A DNA stretch of 62,655 nt, filler included. It is 4 parts of 4 records of this genome, joined end to end, with 100 filler letters (N's around TTAATTAATTAA, not from the genome) between each part and the next. Parts side by side here need not be neighbours in the genome. Positions count along the whole stretch, not along the records: positions 12,381 to 35,782 come from SRR20825006_1316; 3 more parts are not named here. One strand, written 5' to 3'. A model generated the notes under the pieces. The model worked only from the letters and a program-made list of their open reading frames with translations. It had not been told where the DNA came from and ran no database searches. The translations under genes were made by a program, and so were the position numbers. Positions 27,967 to 33,744 of this stretch are shown here, piece by piece; positions within the stretch are counted from its first letter, which is position 1, and the number at the start of each line of letters is the position of its first letter.

Positions 27967-29598
27967 ATGAAACAAATACTTATCGTGGGGCTTTTTGTAA
28001 GCCTTATAGCATGTAGTGGCTCCCAGAAAGCTGCCCAGATTCCCGAAGCTAATATTCTAGACTTTGTGGAAACAATTACAACCGAGGGATTAAAAGCAGA
28101 TTTATCCGTTCTCGCTCACGACTCTTTAGAAGGTCGTGACACAGGAAGCAAAGGCTTAGAAAAAGCTGCTAAATATTTAACTGGTAGATATAAAGCATTA
28201 GGTTTAACACCAGTAGGCGACAATAACACCTATGAACAGCACTTTGATGTTACCACACCTATTACAAATAGCTACGAATACCTACTAAAAGATGCGAACG
28301 GTGCAATTATTGACCATTCTAAACTTACCAAAACCGAAACAGGTAATTTCTCGACTATATTTGGTGGCTCAGATAATGTTTCCGGTGATATCGTATTTGT
28401 AGGCTTGGGTATCTCAGATAAAGAAACTGGTGTAAACCAGATTCCAGAAGATATAGCTGGTAAGTGGCTTATGATGTTTTCTGTTCAAGGCGTTACTAAT
28501 ACTAGAGCATTACAGCAACAAATGGCTAAAGACGGCGCCGCTGGTGTAATACTAATTTATACAGATGGTGTAGAAGAGTTCGAGAAAGCTGTTACATCTA
28601 AGCAATCTTCTTTGGGAAGCAGAGGCAGAATGTCGCTTGCTTATATGCAATCTGATGAAAAAAAGGCTCCTCAGCAAGCTTGGGAGAGAATACATCCAGA
28701 GCTAGCAGTAAAGCTACTTGGTTTAGAAACCTCTACACAACTAGCCGAGCTTTCAGCAAGTATCCAAGAAGCACCAACTACTTTTGAGGCAAAAGCACTT
28801 AACTTCAGCCTAGAGCATAAAGTTGATGCTGAAATTGCAACCGTAACTACAAGTAACATGGTTGCATTTTTAGAAGGTAGCGATCCAAAACTGAAAGACG
28901 AAGTTGTAGTGTTAAGCTCGCATTATGATCACGTAGGTATTGGCCGCCCAGATTCTACTGGAGACACTATTTATAACGGTGCTGATGATGACGGAAGTGG
29001 AACAACAGGTGTTTTAAACACTGCACAAGCAATGATTGCCGCTAAAAATGCAGGAGCAGGCCCAAGAAGAAGTGTTCTTTTTTTACATGTAGCAGGTGAA
29101 GAAAAAGGTCTTCTTGGCTCAAGGTATTACTCAGACCACCCAATTTATTCTGTTGAAAACACCGTTGCTAATATTAATGTTGATATGATTGGCCGTGTTG
29201 ATAAAGAGCATGAAGACAACAAAGATTTTATTTATGTGATTGGTGGGGAAATTATCTCATCTGGACTTGATAGCCTCTTACAAGCAGCAAATACAGCTAG
29301 CGTAAATATTGATTTAAGTAAAAGATATAATGACTTAAACGATCCGAATCAGTTTTATAGAAGAAGTGATCACTGGAATTTTGGACGTCTTGGAATACCA
29401 TTTATTTTCTTCTTTAATGGTGTGCATGCAGATTACCACCGACCTTCTGATCAAATAGAAAATATCGAATGGGGTCCATTAACAAAGCGGACCAAATTAC
29501 TTTATGTAACTACTGCAATGATTGCAAACTCTGATGAACGACCTGTAGTTGATAATCAAGAGTTTATCGAAAAAACAAAAAGCCAATCACGTAATTAA
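27967..29598 (+). CDS. M28 family aminopeptidase lipoprotein with PA insert
   Basis: LIAC lipobox; SHYDH, GADDDGSG, GEEKGLLGS, NVDMIG, RSDH and DYH motifs. Confidence 0.93.
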   Translation: MKQILIVGLFVSLIACSGSQKAAQIPEANILDFVETITTEGLKADLSVLAHDSLEGRDTGSKGLEKAAKYLTGRYKALGLTPVGDNNTYEQHFDVTTPITNSYEYLLKDANGAIIDHSKLTKTETGNFSTIFGGSDNVSGDIVFVGLGISDKETGVNQIPEDIAGKWLMMFSVQGVTNTRALQQQMAKDGAAGVILIYTDGVEEFEKAVTSKQSSLGSRGRMSLAYMQSDEKKAPQQAWERIHPELAVKLLGLETSTQLAELSASIQEAPTTFEAKALNFSLEHKVDAEIATVTTSNMVAFLEGSDPKLKDEVVVLSSHYDHVGIGRPDSTGDTIYNGADDDGSGTTGVLNTAQAMIAAKNAGAGPRRSVLFLHVAGEEKGLLGSRYYSDHPIYSVENTVANINVDMIGRVDKEHEDNKDFIYVIGGEIISSGLDSLLQAANTASVNIDLSKRYNDLNDPNQFYRRSDHWNFGRLGIPFIFFFNGVHADYHRPSDQIENIEWGPLTKRTKLLYVTTAMIANSDERPVVDNQEFIEKTKSQSRN

Positions 29599-29599
29599 G

Positions 29600-32521
29600 C
29601 TATTTACCAATTAGGATAAATGGTGCCCAATAAACGGGATGATTGTAATAGGGATGTTGAAGCATTGAAAGCTTTGCATCCCTTATTGCTTTAGCCTTGT
29701 AATCGAACAAAGGCGCTTGGTAAGAATCAAAATAGTAAAGAGTTTTATCCCACCAAGTAAAGTCGCTGCTTTCATAGAGGTTAATATTCTCGTAAAATTT
29801 ACCCATTAATTGAGCTGTGCTTCTATCGTAAATACTCCAAAGGCTTACTAAAACAGAAGAAGCTCCAGCCTTTAAGAAAGACCGCTGTAAGCCCAACAGT
29901 CCCTCTCCCGCAATCACTTTGCCAAAGCCAGTATTACAAGCGCTTAACACAACCAGATCTGCATTCAGAGTTAGCGAGCTGATTTCCATGCTATTTAGAA
30001 AACCATCTTCCCCAAATGAATTTTCAGCAGCATTACTACTAGCTAGAAGAAGTCCACTTTGAAGCGGGTTTTCTTCGTTTACCAATGCATGCGATGCGAA
30101 ATGGATGTACTTGAAACTAGATAAGTCGAGTCGCTTGAAATCTTCTTCATAAATAATGCCTTCATTAAGCAAAACTTTGGAGTCAAAATGGATGGAGATA
30201 GAGTCAACTTCTAGTAAAGAAGCAGGAAGCGAGGAAAGAGAGTTTCTTTTATTAGCTGTTGAGAAGTTGGTTGAAGGCTGAAGCCCCGAAGCAGCAAGGG
30301 CTAATAATTCTTGCGAAGTTTTCCGATGTGGGTTTTGTATGTAATTATATACCGTAGCAGAAGGAAGGTATTTAAAATTGAAATCTTCAATTAGATACTT
30401 ATTATCTCGGATTAGAGCATCAAACGGAAGTAATGCAATGCCTTGGTCTGGTACGATTAAAATTTGACTTATATGAGCGTTCTGTTCTATAAATGGTGCA
30501 AGTAGTTTTTTATAGATAGGCTGGGATAAATTCTTGAGTATTTGTCTGTCGGCTATATGCTCAATAGCGGTTTTAAATTCCTCAATTTGTTTGTTTACAA
30601 TTTCTGAGGCAGAATTGGAGTCAAATTCAATTAAACGATAGGAATAGCCTTGTTTAGTAATCCAAAAAGCCATTAATGTGTTACCAGAGAAAGCATATTC
30701 TATAATAGCAGTTCTATCGTCGCAGAGTTCAGTAAGATCATTCAGAGAAATAACATTCGGAATTTCAAGTTCTTTGAGCTCTTTATGAGCTAGACGCACC
30801 TTATTTATGGTACTTTGGTAGTCGAACTCGACCATATTAATCTGTTGCTTTAAACTAGACATTAAGGAGCTGTCTTGGAGAGATTCAAGTTCTCGATATA
30901 GCTGATCTATAGCGCGTTCTTTCTGTTTAATCTCGAGTAAAGTAGGTTCATCAACAATAGCAGCAATCTGGGAGTTTGAAAGGGAAAGATTATCCAAAAG
31001 AACTCTAGACTTTCCCTTCTCAATTAAAGTGAAGGCTTTTTCAGGGTCTGATTTCCTGGAAAGATACCAATAACCAACTTCGTTATAGAACCGCGCAAAA
31101 TCTCTAAATAAGGAAGTTTGTAGATTATCTCCGTAGATGTTGTTTCTAATGCGCTCAATCTCATCAAATGCTTTATCAGCATAATAAAAAGCACTGTCCG
31201 AACCCGTTAAATAGAAAGCTCTCGAAAGGTCAGCAAGATATTCATTGAGCTTATACCCCTTAAAAAGGGACGCCTTACTATATGATTTCTTTGAAAAAGT
31301 AAGCGCCAAGTCATATCGCTTAAGCGTAGAGTATACTTTTGCTAACGCTGATAGCGATTGAGCTTGGAGCTGTTTCGATTCCGTTTCTGCAGAAAGTTCT
31401 ACTGCCTTTTTTGAATAAGAGAGCGCAGCATCATAATTTTGAGCTTCTAATTCTAAGTCAGCCCTTTTTAGGTAAACATCAATAATACGAAGTGGCTCCT
31501 TATACCCTTCAAACAATACTAATGCCTCATTAAAGAAAGTGCGTGCGACCTCAAACTCATCTTTTCTTTGATAAATTTCAGCAATTCTCACTAATGCAAC
31601 GGGGTTATGAAAGGCATATTCTTTTCGTAACTGCTGGCTATAATTGTAGTAGCTCAATGCTTTTTCATACTCTCCTAAAGCAAAATAAACCGATCCAATT
31701 TTATCATTCCCTGAAATTATTTTAATGATATTTCCAGTGTCTTTAATTAAGTCTAAATACATGGAGTAATACGTTAGAGCTTTATCGTAATCTCCTTTTC
31801 GCCTATAAAATTCGCCAAGCGATGTATAGTCTTCAGATATTAAATCTTTGTTGTCGATTTTAATTTTAAGGGCTAACGATTTAAAGAGAATTTTTTCGGC
31901 TTTATCCACAAACCCAAGGTAATTGTAAGCCACATATTGATTATTAAGAGACATCGCTAGCTGGAAATTATCCCCAATTTTTGTAAATGCTTCTACCGCA
32001 GTTGTTGCATATTCCACGGAAGAGCTATATAAACCCATTGCGAATGTAAGTGTAGACATAGAGTTACTAACTTGAGCAATTCTATATTCATCACCAGATG
32101 CTTTTGCAAGCTCGAATGCTTTTTGGTATTGAATCAGGGCTTCGTGATTATTTCTAACACGCTTTGTCACCCAGCCCATATTACTTTTAACATAAGCCTG
32201 CAATTCTAAAGAAATTTCGTTGGTAAGGGCTGAGTCTGCTTTATTTACCCATTCAAAGCCTTGAAGTAGTTCGCCTTGATCCATTAGAGAGGCACCATAA
32301 CCAACCGCAGCAATAATCCAATCTCTATTGTTTTTATCGGAGGAAAATTTGCCCATAGCTTCTAAGTAAATCTTAGCTGAGGCTTTATAGTCTGCAGTAC
32401 GATACACTTTATTACCAAGCGACAAAAGGGAGTCGTATTCAGCGCTAGCATATTGCGCGCTCGCACTTGGGCAATAGAAAAGGGCCAAGAATAAAATGAA
32501 AAAGGAAGCCCGATTTACCAT
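29600..32521 (-). CDS. Exported TPR-CHAT (caspase/HetF-like) protease
   Basis: Signal peptide MVNRASFFILFLALFYCPSASA; about 10 TPRs; EKGKSRVLLD; CHAT motifs IVPD, LPFDAL, HFASHA (His), LSACNTG (Cys), SLWSI and HPVYWAPF. Confidence 0.93.
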   Translation of the reverse strand: MVNRASFFILFLALFYCPSASAQYASAEYDSLLSLGNKVYRTADYKASAKIYLEAMGKFSSDKNNRDWIIAAVGYGASLMDQGELLQGFEWVNKADSALTNEISLELQAYVKSNMGWVTKRVRNNHEALIQYQKAFELAKASGDEYRIAQVSNSMSTLTFAMGLYSSSVEYATTAVEAFTKIGDNFQLAMSLNNQYVAYNYLGFVDKAEKILFKSLALKIKIDNKDLISEDYTSLGEFYRRKGDYDKALTYYSMYLDLIKDTGNIIKIISGNDKIGSVYFALGEYEKALSYYNYSQQLRKEYAFHNPVALVRIAEIYQRKDEFEVARTFFNEALVLFEGYKEPLRIIDVYLKRADLELEAQNYDAALSYSKKAVELSAETESKQLQAQSLSALAKVYSTLKRYDLALTFSKKSYSKASLFKGYKLNEYLADLSRAFYLTGSDSAFYYADKAFDEIERIRNNIYGDNLQTSLFRDFARFYNEVGYWYLSRKSDPEKAFTLIEKGKSRVLLDNLSLSNSQIAAIVDEPTLLEIKQKERAIDQLYRELESLQDSSLMSSLKQQINMVEFDYQSTINKVRLAHKELKELEIPNVISLNDLTELCDDRTAIIEYAFSGNTLMAFWITKQGYSYRLIEFDSNSASEIVNKQIEEFKTAIEHIADRQILKNLSQPIYKKLLAPFIEQNAHISQILIVPDQGIALLPFDALIRDNKYLIEDFNFKYLPSATVYNYIQNPHRKTSQELLALAASGLQPSTNFSTANKRNSLSSLPASLLEVDSISIHFDSKVLLNEGIIYEEDFKRLDLSSFKYIHFASHALVNEENPLQSGLLLASSNAAENSFGEDGFLNSMEISSLTLNADLVVLSACNTGFGKVIAGEGLLGLQRSFLKAGASSVLVSLWSIYDRSTAQLMGKFYENINLYESSDFTWWDKTLYYFDSYQAPLFDYKAKAIRDAKLSMLQHPYYNHPVYWAPFILIGK

Positions 32522-32547
32522 AAGAATTTTTTTCTTACTTAGTTTTA
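32519..32547 (+). promoter_or_regulatory. Putative ECF-type promoter for the micropeptide
   Basis: CATAAG-N16-AGTTTTA, same spacing as and 9 identical positions with the motif at 26545-26573. Confidence 0.3.
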
Positions 32548-32615
32548 GAAAACGATAGTATCGTTCAAATATATTCCGTTGTTTGCTAACTAACAAAATA
32601 TAGGTAGGAGTACAA

Positions 32616-32741
32616 ATGGCTTATAGATTAAGCAAAATAAAAACAAAAAAATACAACATGCCTGATGGAACTGGCGGTAACGGCGGCGGTGACGACGGCA
32701 GCGAAAAACCTGGTGCGGGAGAAGGCGGTGTTGGCGGTTGA
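32616..32741 (+). CDS. Unannotated 41-aa micropeptide MAYRLSKIKTKKYNMPDGTGGNGGGDDGSEKPGAGEGGVGG
   Basis: AGGAG (32606-32610) 5 nt before the ATG; GC-rich Gly codons in AT-rich DNA; TGA 13 nt before a bidirectional terminator. Confidence 0.7.
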   Translation: MAYRLSKIKTKKYNMPDGTGGNGGGDDGSEKPGAGEGGVGG

Positions 32742-32754
32742 AGCTAAAGTTCAT

Positions 32755-32792
32755 AAAGCCTCTTTTTGCCGTTAATGGTAAAAAGAGGCTTT
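32755..32792. terminator. Bidirectional intrinsic terminator between the micropeptide and ftsY
   Basis: AAAGCCTCTTTTTGCC-GTTAAT-GGTAAAAAGAGGCTTT. Confidence 0.8.
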
Positions 32793-33744
32793 ACTCTCCA
32801 AAAAGCGCATTTACAAAACTTTCACGATCGAAAATCTGTAAGTCTTCTATTTTCTCACCAAGTCCTATATATTTTACAGGAACATTGAGCTCATGAGAAA
32901 TTCCAATAACAATCCCACCTTTCGCTGTTCCGTCTAACTTAGTAAGTGCTAATCCAGTAATATCTACTGCTTCAGTAAAAGCTTTGGCTTGCTGCAATGC
33001 ATTCTGCCCCGTAGAGCCATCAAGAACTAGAATTACCTCGTGAGGAGCATCAGGTATAACTTTACTCATTACACGTTTTATTTTAGATAGCTCATCCATC
33101 AGAACTTTCTTGTTGTGTAAACGGCCAGCGGTATCTATTAATACTACTTCCGATCCACGGGCTACAGCTGAAGAAACAGTGTCGAACGCTACAGAAGCTG
33201 GGTCTGCATTTTGCCCTTGCTGTACAATTGGCACATCAGCCCGCTCACTCCATATAATAAGTTGGTCTACTGCGGCTGCTCTAAAGGTATCAGCAGCACC
33301 TAGTAATACTTTTTTCCCTGCCATTTTATACTGATGGGCAAGTTTACCGATAGTCGTTGTTTTGCCAACACCATTCACCCCCACGATAAGAACGACGTGT
33401 GGAGTGGACTCAAACTGGGCGTTAAATTCTGCGGGTTTATTGGCTTCATTTTCTTTTAAAAGGCCAATAATTTCCTCTCTAAGAATTCTTTGAAGCTCGC
33501 CCTGTGATACAAACTTATCTTTAGCTACACGTGCTTCTATACGGCGAATAATCTCAAGAGTGGTGGCTACACCTACATCAGAAGTAATTAGAATTTCTTC
33601 TAATTGATCTAGTGTTTCATCATCAACACGATCTTTACCAACAAAGGCTTTACTAAGCTTGTTTAAAATTCCTTGGCGACTTTTTTCAACTCCCTTTTCG
33701 AGAGTTTCTTTCTTCTTTAAGCCAATTTTCTTAAAAAATCCCAT
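32791..33744 (-). CDS. ftsY: Signal recognition particle receptor FtsY
   Basis: GVNGVGKTTT, DTFRAAA, DTAGR and TKLDGTAKGG motifs. Confidence 0.98.
   Translation of the reverse strand: MGFFKKIGLKKKETLEKGVEKSRQGILNKLSKAFVGKDRVDDETLDQLEEILITSDVGVATTLEIIRRIEARVAKDKFVSQGELQRILREEIIGLLKENEANKPAEFNAQFESTPHVVLIVGVNGVGKTTTIGKLAHQYKMAGKKVLLGAADTFRAAAVDQLIIWSERADVPIVQQGQNADPASVAFDTVSSAVARGSEVVLIDTAGRLHNKKVLMDELSKIKRVMSKVIPDAPHEVILVLDGSTGQNALQQAKAFTEAVDITGLALTKLDGTAKGGIVIGISHELNVPVKYIGLGEKIEDLQIFDRESFVNALFGE

Follow-up and report, generated by a model that had tools for sequence, protein, structure and literature searches.

A small-protein gene of Balneola in the spacer between ftsY and the gene of a predicted exported TPR-CHAT protease

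We analysed a stretch of 62,655 nucleotides (nt), filler included (the window), in which an open reading frame (ORF) of 41 codons lies between ftsY and the gene of a TPR-CHAT protease. Judged by comparison among 23 genomes of the genus Balneola, this ORF is a genuine protein-coding small gene under purifying selection in both of its halves. Our best guess is that its product is a cytoplasmic protein of a short-motif or hydrophilin-like kind, transcribed from a control region shared with the CHAT gene. The fuller reading, which we hold with moderate confidence, is that this gene, which is confined to Balneola and lies antisense in an older ftsY-CHAT spacer, would encode a disordered cytoplasmic protein and that its tie to CHAT would be mostly transcriptional. 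An earlier note, made by a model from the DNA letters, had picked out the ORF and proposed that its product is a dedicated ligand, inhibitor or substrate of the protease. The gene itself and its conserved linkage to CHAT stood up in our analysis, and the mechanism of a peptide-gated protease did not. The locus provides a new and so far unnamed lineage-specific bacterial micropeptide, and a clean example of a taxonomically restricted micropeptide gene that can be demonstrated from comparative sequence alone.

Conservation and selection of the small gene

The gene occupies 32616..32741 on the plus strand (ATG at 32616, 41 codons and a TGA at 32739-32741), and both its position and its sequence agree exactly with the ORF that had been reported. 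Likewise present are the Shine-Dalgarno-like AGGAG at 32606..32610 (plus strand), which ends 5 nt short of the ATG, and the spacing of 94 nt between this ATG and the divergent start of the 973-amino-acid (aa) CHAT protein. The Gly codons had been described as GC-rich, and the GC content is indeed 0.65 in the tail of the ORF, compared with 0.22 in the head and 0.445 for the window. The encoded protein consists of a head (residues 1-15), an invariant P16-D17-G18 and a Gly/acidic tail (residues 19-41).

The genus was represented by 23 genomes, identified as Balneola (marine) by named records, and 20 of the loci were fetched and aligned. All 23 genomes (the 20 fetched loci and the 3 remaining ones) have the small ORF at the corresponding place, with identical orientation. 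The fetched ORFs, of 33-47 aa, are all built in the same manner: a Met, 11-15 residues, P-D-G and a tail of Gly, Pro, Ser and acidic residues. The invariant alignment columns among these 20 sequences are M1, P16, D17 and G18. The 3 remaining genomes have PDD, HDG or SDDG in place of PDG, and Asp is the sole residue besides Met1 that is kept in all 23 orthologues. The ORF with SDDG, from genome G023, is the most divergent of the family.

The peptide had also been described as bipartite, with a Lys/Arg-rich head and a tail that begins at a second Met. This is correct for the ORF of the window, but the second Met and the strongly basic head do not generalise. The head charge of +5 is special to the species group of the window (genus range 0 to +5, mean +2.1), and the Met before PDG is kept in just 9 of the 23 orthologues, for which reason an internal start at Met15 was ruled out.

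Selection on the amino acid sequence can be seen in several measures. The coding frame is open across the span of the ORF in 20 of 20 loci, and the other five frames are open in 3, 0, 1, 7 and 6 of them. Differences at the first, second and third codon positions numbered 18, 26 and 65 in five non-overlapping close pairs (chi-square p = 3e-8), and 64, 72 and 119 once three more distant pairs were added. The ratio of nonsynonymous to synonymous rates (omega, or dN/dS; NG86) was 0.09-0.31 in close pairs, about 0.2, and when pooled over the five close pairs it was 0.24 for the head and 0.19 for the tail. Small Gly-rich ORFs with a ribosome-binding site and omega below 1, which the earlier note had suggested looking for beside CHAT orthologues, are thus found within the genus, at 23 of 23 loci. 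Close pairs also contained 22 indel codons in the tail and none in the head, all in frame. Since all length changes of the tail are in whole codons, the tail appears to evolve by repeat slippage. Runs of (Gly-Ser)3-6 that differ in length between species were observed in the tails from loci L007, L011, L014 and L017.

An antisense ORF of 54 aa (32590-32754, minus strand), which overlaps the whole small gene, was tried as a candidate and rejected. Because minus-strand frames are open in at most 7 of 20 loci, it is a side effect of the GC-rich tail rather than a gene in its own right. A similar objection could be raised to the small ORF, namely that it is a chance open frame in a GC-rich patch; it is short, of low complexity and without a family match. 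This is contradicted by all of the conservation and selection results, and we regard it as extremely improbable. The presence in 23 of 23 genomes, the conserved frame, the omega of about 0.2 and the gene's own signals together identify the ORF as a genuine genus-restricted orphan gene.

We then considered how far the family extends. A profile of the peptide gave one match per genome, always in the ftsY-CHAT spacer, in 20 of the 23 genus genomes (E 6e-15 to 1e-6), and no credible match in 18 outgroup genomes, where the best (E 0.02) lies inside another reading frame. Among 5.8 billion proteins there were 23 matches at E <= 0.01, all of 29-44 aa and all of the same type; the names among them were just 'hypothetical protein', one from Balneola vulgaris. 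A search for longer or fused relatives through 7998 candidates gave none at E <= 0.01; as evidence this is weak. When one genome per species was scanned with a 6-sequence alignment, 5 loci were returned, all titled Balneola or Balneolaceae. The exact 41-aa sequence is present in the ESM Atlas, and other family members are labelled 'hypothetical protein' in public sets; the best scores in that atlas (0.80 and 0.77) go to unnamed clusters and are at chance level. Pfam assigned no family to the small protein. The family therefore appears confined to Balneola, as far as these searches reach.

The two flanking genes are an older pair. In the window, ftsY (the gene of the signal recognition particle (SRP) receptor GTPase; 32791..33744, minus strand; Pfam SRP54 1.7e-77 and SRP54_N) lies upstream of the CHAT gene and is co-directional with it, both being on the minus strand. 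The spacer between them is 269 nt, and the small ORF lies antisense within it, convergent with ftsY and divergent from CHAT. We found ftsY in 41 of 41 genomes. It is followed by a co-directional TPR-CHAT gene in all 23 Balneola genomes and in 5 of the 16 assessable outgroup genomes, which come from four families of the order (Balneolales); two further outgroup genomes, in which a contig ends at ftsY, were excluded. We fetched the 5 outgroup genomes that had the best CHAT matches (L054-L058), which are thus a chosen sample and not a random one. In each of them CHAT stands directly after ftsY on the same strand, with spacers of 62-178 nt, and in none does the spacer hold a comparable small ORF. 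The small gene was thus added within the lineage of Balneola. Of the 16 assessable outgroup genomes, the other 11 have no CHAT gene following ftsY, and no small Gly-rich ORF was seen within 700 nt of ftsY, only an unrelated 26-aa frame on the ftsY strand. One such genome without the pair, the 1.7-Mb G024, has an M28 peptidase gene directly after ftsY. From its distribution the ftsY-CHAT pair looks like an old and repeatedly lost linkage of the SRP receptor gene with an exported caspase-fold protease. Insertion of the small gene within this older and patchily kept pair gives a dated small-gene birth and a defined test locus. The locus also flags an uncharacterised exported TPR-CHAT protease of the separase/Craspase fold, linked to ftsY in several Balneolales families.

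Properties of the small protein

The protein, which weighs about 4 kDa, is weakly basic in its head and acidic and Gly-rich in its tail. Among the orthologues the heads are 11-16 polar or basic residues, the tails have a net charge of -1 to -7 and carry 'KP' in 21 of 23 cases, and none of the proteins has a Cys or a hydrophobic stretch. An AlphaFold2 model made with 20 sequences had a mean predicted local distance difference test score (pLDDT) of 52.7, with one short helix at residues 4-9 and no usable fold.

Hydrophilins are defined by a hydrophilicity index above 1 and a Gly content above 6% (PMC7448490). We used the grand average of hydropathy (GRAVY) as a stand-in for the hydrophilicity index. 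Over 20 peptides, Gly content was 14-33% and GRAVY was -0.87 to -1.73 (mean -1.20). All 20 thus exceed the Gly threshold, and 16 of 20 have a GRAVY below -1, the stand-in for the hydrophilicity threshold; the remaining 4 are at -0.87 to -0.96. The peptide resembles hydrophilins such as E. coli RMF, YciG and the LEA-like (late embryogenesis abundant-like) proteins in being small, Gly-rich and hydrophilic, and it is cytoplasmic by sequence and without a predicted fold. It differs from them in having no sequence relation to any named hydrophilin, in being much shorter than most, and in carrying a conserved N-terminal motif with an invariant Asp.

On this basis we propose that the small protein would be intrinsically disordered and would remain in the cytoplasm. 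Its head, some 15 residues long, might serve together with the invariant Asp of the P-D-G turn as a short linear binding motif, and the Gly/Pro/Ser/acidic tail would be a hydrophilic appendage constrained in its composition, with a length that changes by in-frame codon slippage. Its composition would place the protein with the hydrophilins, which are small, Gly-rich and very hydrophilic stress proteins. Its gene would most likely be tied to the CHAT gene at the level of transcription.

Conserved head and length-variable tail are also the usual layout of a precursor peptide, and GSGSGS tails occur in some orthologues. The product could accordingly be viewed as a peptide that is exported or modified, be it a signal or a precursor of the kind that yields ribosomally synthesised and post-translationally modified peptides (RiPPs), with the head as leader and the Gly/Ser-rich tail as core; an M28 peptidase and the protease itself are nearby. 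However, none of the 14 neighbouring genes scanned is a modifying enzyme, a cyclodehydratase, a radical-SAM gene, a C39-ABC exporter or another transporter, and the neighbours are housekeeping genes kept across the order. The peptides have no Cys and no Pfam match, and the would-be core is itself under purifying selection (omega 0.19). Likeness to RiPP precursors is thus limited to the leader-like head and the variable tail, and we consider a precursor very unlikely.

The shared control region and the ends of the transcript

By its layout the small gene is monocistronic, and it has a ribosome-binding site of its own, an upstream block specific to the locus, and a stem-loop behind its stop. In 13 of 20 loci the ATG is preceded, at a distance of 4-14 nt, by a motif of the GGAG/AGGA type (consensus gGAGtacaAt). 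Further upstream in the window is a conserved non-coding block, AATATATT-CC-GTTGTTT...AACAAAA (32568..32598, no strand assigned), which is a candidate shared divergent promoter and 5' leader. Across loci it reads AATATATT-yy-GTTGTTT...ACAAC-CAAAA and lies 30-48 nt upstream, and at least 16 of the 20 loci agree at each position of AATATATT and GTTGTTT. The upstream non-coding stretch as a whole is at least as conserved as the small ORF.

The first element of the block (32568-32575) is palindromic and -10-like, giving TATATT on either strand. A consensus scan placed sigma-70-like sites at 32546..32575 on the plus strand and at 32596..32568 on the minus strand (TTGTTA-17-TATATT). Symmetrical -10 elements are shared within bidirectional promoters, and one such element could serve both the small gene and the CHAT gene here. 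With the two starts 94 nt apart around palindromic elements, the genes may be co-regulated or may compete for RNA polymerase.

We also asked how specific the block is. An exact 17-mer taken from it is unique within the window, and with 0 mismatches it occurs only at the small-gene locus in 3 of the 4 genomes searched; an exact copy is absent from the fourth (G007), and matches with 1 mismatch are at control level. As exact copies are found at this locus only, the block is locus-specific and not a general promoter consensus, and a role as a general promoter or regulon motif was ruled out.

At 32551..32565, in the interval from the CHAT start codon to the -10-like element, lies a perfect palindrome, AACGATA-G-TATCGTT, which might act as an operator or form a hairpin in the 5' leader. 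At this position other species show another palindrome, a partial one built on a conserved TAG(C/T)AT core (GTTGTAGCATACAAC is one example). A second species group has GTTGTAGCATACAAC in place of the perfect palindrome, and there a similar second inverted repeat, GTTGTTTCCATACAAC, follows AATATATT. These inverted repeats may be an operator pair or leader hairpins.

Downstream, the earlier note had reported a bidirectional terminator just after the stop of the small gene, and folding bears out the hairpin. This stem-loop (32754..32793; 17-bp arms, 6-nt loop) stands where the small gene and ftsY converge, and it overlaps the stop codon of ftsY (32791-32793). The fold has an energy of -26.2 kcal/mol over a 90-nt stretch (calculated at the near-identical locus L001), and a stem-loop after the stop is also predicted at other loci. 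By eye, at least 4 T directly follow it on the plus strand in 11 of 20 loci and in 3 of the 3 remaining genus loci. The stem-loop is likely a bidirectional terminator. A simple terminator scan gave no site, as the loop or stem shape is outside the rules of the scan.

These features would also suit a transcript that matters in its own right. In this alternative the ORF is incidental, and an antisense or insulator unit would stop read-through from ftsY and set CHAT expression by promoter competition. The position of the unit is precisely between ftsY and CHAT, its end is a hairpin that looks bidirectional, the upstream non-coding block is no less conserved than the ORF, and the short outgroup spacers lack the unit. 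Yet the third-position excess, the low omega, the in-frame indels and the open frame in all 20 loci are marks of selection on amino acids. A search of Rfam with 32300-33000 returned 11 matches at E up to 10, none of them near the gathering score (best 24.6 bits against a cut-off of 90). There is little probability, in our view, that the RNA is what is selected.

The TPR-CHAT protease and its neighbourhood

The TPR-CHAT gene is at 29600..32521 on the minus strand and encodes 973 aa from an ATG, or 998 aa from an upstream TTG. Pfam recognises CHAT (3.4e-58, residues 665-913) and several TPR families, among them TPR_12 (1e-30). The catalytic dyad had been described as intact, and both HFASHA and LSACNTG are present, with H807, H811 and C862 invariant in 20 orthologues. 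In an AlphaFold2 model (pLDDT 79.1) roughly twelve pairs of helical repeats precede an alpha/beta domain: the TPR-like region, of about 11-12 helical pairs, comes after the signal, and the CHAT domain (665-913) holds H807, H811 and C862. Each of the 23 genus genomes has a CHAT orthologue. In G023 (L053, 3863-6789) the orthologue is split into frames of 420 aa and 550 aa while the small ORF is intact; the split lies shortly after an A7 run (about L053 5073-5079) and may be a real frameshift or an assembly error.

The earlier note had itself cautioned that the protease appears to have a Sec signal and the peptide none, and the sequences agree with this. A predicted Sec signal covers residues 1-22 of the CHAT protein (nt 32456-32521, minus strand). 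All 20 orthologues begin with a basic-hydrophobic-small (n-h-c) signal that ends in S/A before an invariant Q23-Y24 (by eye), and the peptide has no hydrophobic segment. The invariant Gln-Tyr stands at the predicted mature N-terminus (SQ|YAN...; codon Q23 at 32453-32455) in 20 of 20 orthologues. Exported proteins of the Bacteroidota are known for a Gln at +1 once the signal has been cleaved off, and for its cyclisation to pyroglutamate. The protease is thus predicted to be exported, which makes direct contact between peptide and protease less likely.

Foldseek with the CHAT model placed DdvA (8rot_A) first (E 1.2e-13), then Csx29 and separase, at 11-14% identity. When the CHAT profile was compared with PDB sequences, the best stretch lay in the TPR part (query 115-422) in every one of the 60 matches listed out of 131. 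DdvA is an anti-sigma factor of Myxococcus whose TPR-CHAT domain is described as periplasmic (PMC11506125), and it offers a precedent for an exported TPR-CHAT protein. The Balneola protein would likewise be extracytoplasmic, by its predicted signal. The two differ in that DdvA is membrane-anchored, has an N-terminal zinc anti-sigma domain and is partnered by an extracytoplasmic function (ECF) sigma factor, whereas the Balneola protein has a cleavable-looking signal and no sigma factor gene among the scanned neighbours.

Csx29 of the type III-E Craspase had been offered as a model of an activated TPR-CHAT protease with a dedicated substrate. The two proteins share the TPR and CHAT architecture and the His-Cys dyad (Foldseek E about 1e-12 to 1e-13, identity 12-14%), but the comparison breaks down on context. 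The Balneola locus has no Cas7-11, CRISPR array or Csx30/31, and there are no CRISPR genes within about 10 kb; the Balneola protein, with its predicted signal peptide, is not placed in the cytoplasm and sits in a housekeeping neighbourhood downstream of ftsY. The parallel drawn with RRNPP regulators is no closer. RRNPP receptors are cytoplasmic and carry helix-turn-helix (HTH) or phosphatase domains; their pro-peptides leave the cell by secretion and are then taken up again. The Balneola locus also pairs a TPR protein with a small peptide gene, but here the TPR protein is exported and has a protease domain, Pfam finds only TPR families and CHAT with no HTH or phosphatase domain, and the peptide lacks a secretion signal or hydrophobic stretch. 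Separase and securin offer another comparison. Separase is held by the disordered securin, and the CHAT model matches separase chains (E about 1e-11 to 1e-13) while the neighbouring peptide is predicted to be disordered. However, identity is 11-12% with a low TM-score, the CHAT protein has a signal peptide, and it and the 33-47-aa peptide are predicted to be in different compartments. Securin is also far longer than the peptide.

It is against this background that a partnership has to be judged, in which the peptide is a securin-like pseudosubstrate or inhibitor, or a substrate cut at the invariant Asp (P1 Asp with P1' Gly or Asp, as for caspases), and acts before export or in the periplasm by an unspecified route. 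The head-to-head arrangement in all 23 genomes, the conservation of Asp and Met1 as the only universal residues, the disorder of the peptide with separase among the fold neighbours of CHAT, the invariant His/Cys dyad and the conserved control region common to both genes all speak for such a partnership. On the other side, adjacency does not single out CHAT, as the peptide gene is equally always beside ftsY. The protease family works without the peptide, as all 5 outgroup ftsY-CHAT pairs lack the ORF, and no peptide copies stand beside paralogous CHAT genes, the profile giving one match per genome. A Sec-type signal is conserved on CHAT and there is none on the peptide. The split CHAT gene of G023 beside an intact peptide ORF also counts against the partnership, with the reservation that it may be an assembly error. 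Asp specificity is not established for CHAT proteases, and Csx29 reportedly cuts Csx30 after a Leu. A complex prediction for mature CHAT (26-973) and the peptide gave a score of 0.01, made without family alignments or controls, and counts neither way.

Nothing was therefore gained for a dedicated ligand, inhibitor or substrate beyond adjacency, and we judge such a partnership unlikely. Its most specific version is that Balneola provided a protease of older date, linked to ftsY, with a pseudosubstrate that is disordered or with a pro-peptide that can be cleaved; the invariant Asp-Gly would be the scissile site, in the manner of caspases, and both genes would be driven by one palindromic divergent promoter. 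We would call this quite unlikely; if true, no bacterial CHAT protease before it would have had a micropeptide regulator genetically dedicated to it. More generally, a peptide that acts on the protease would mean a new regulatory principle for bacterial caspase-like enzymes, which is a minority reading on present evidence. Among the papers listed by a literature search, which was not directed at reports of the peptide itself, none joined Balneola with CHAT.

Several points weigh against the reading that we prefer, of a cytoplasmic disordered protein tied to CHAT mostly through transcription. A direct functional link would likewise predict that the small gene and CHAT stand strictly head-to-head, as they do in 23 of 23 genomes. 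The signal peptide of CHAT was read by eye and not with a predictor, and the promoter assignment is a candidate one made purely from consensus matches. Transcription, translation and location of the small protein are things that we infer from the sequence. Three genus members without P-D-G were missed by the profile and are matched by position and architecture only. Omega is 0.4-1.5 between distant species, where dS is saturated and the alignment of the tail is unreliable, so that selection is shown for close pairs only, with few sites each. Lastly, hydrophilins are a compositional class and not a family, and 4 of the 20 peptides are just short of a GRAVY of -1.

The wider neighbourhood consists of housekeeping genes that are kept across the order. 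We scanned 14 neighbouring products between 23435 and 39746, among them polyphosphate kinase, a TPR protein, ScpA, an M28 peptidase and FtsY; the others include a CDP-alcohol transferase, a NUDIX protein, an HTH_17 protein, an LRR protein and three without a family. No cas, sigma or anti-sigma, RiPP or transporter gene was seen among these 14. The M28 peptidase gene (27967-29598, plus strand) has a lipoprotein-like or signal N-terminus and ends 2 nt before the CHAT stop, convergent with that gene. It keeps its place next to CHAT in all three further genus loci that were inspected (L051-L053).

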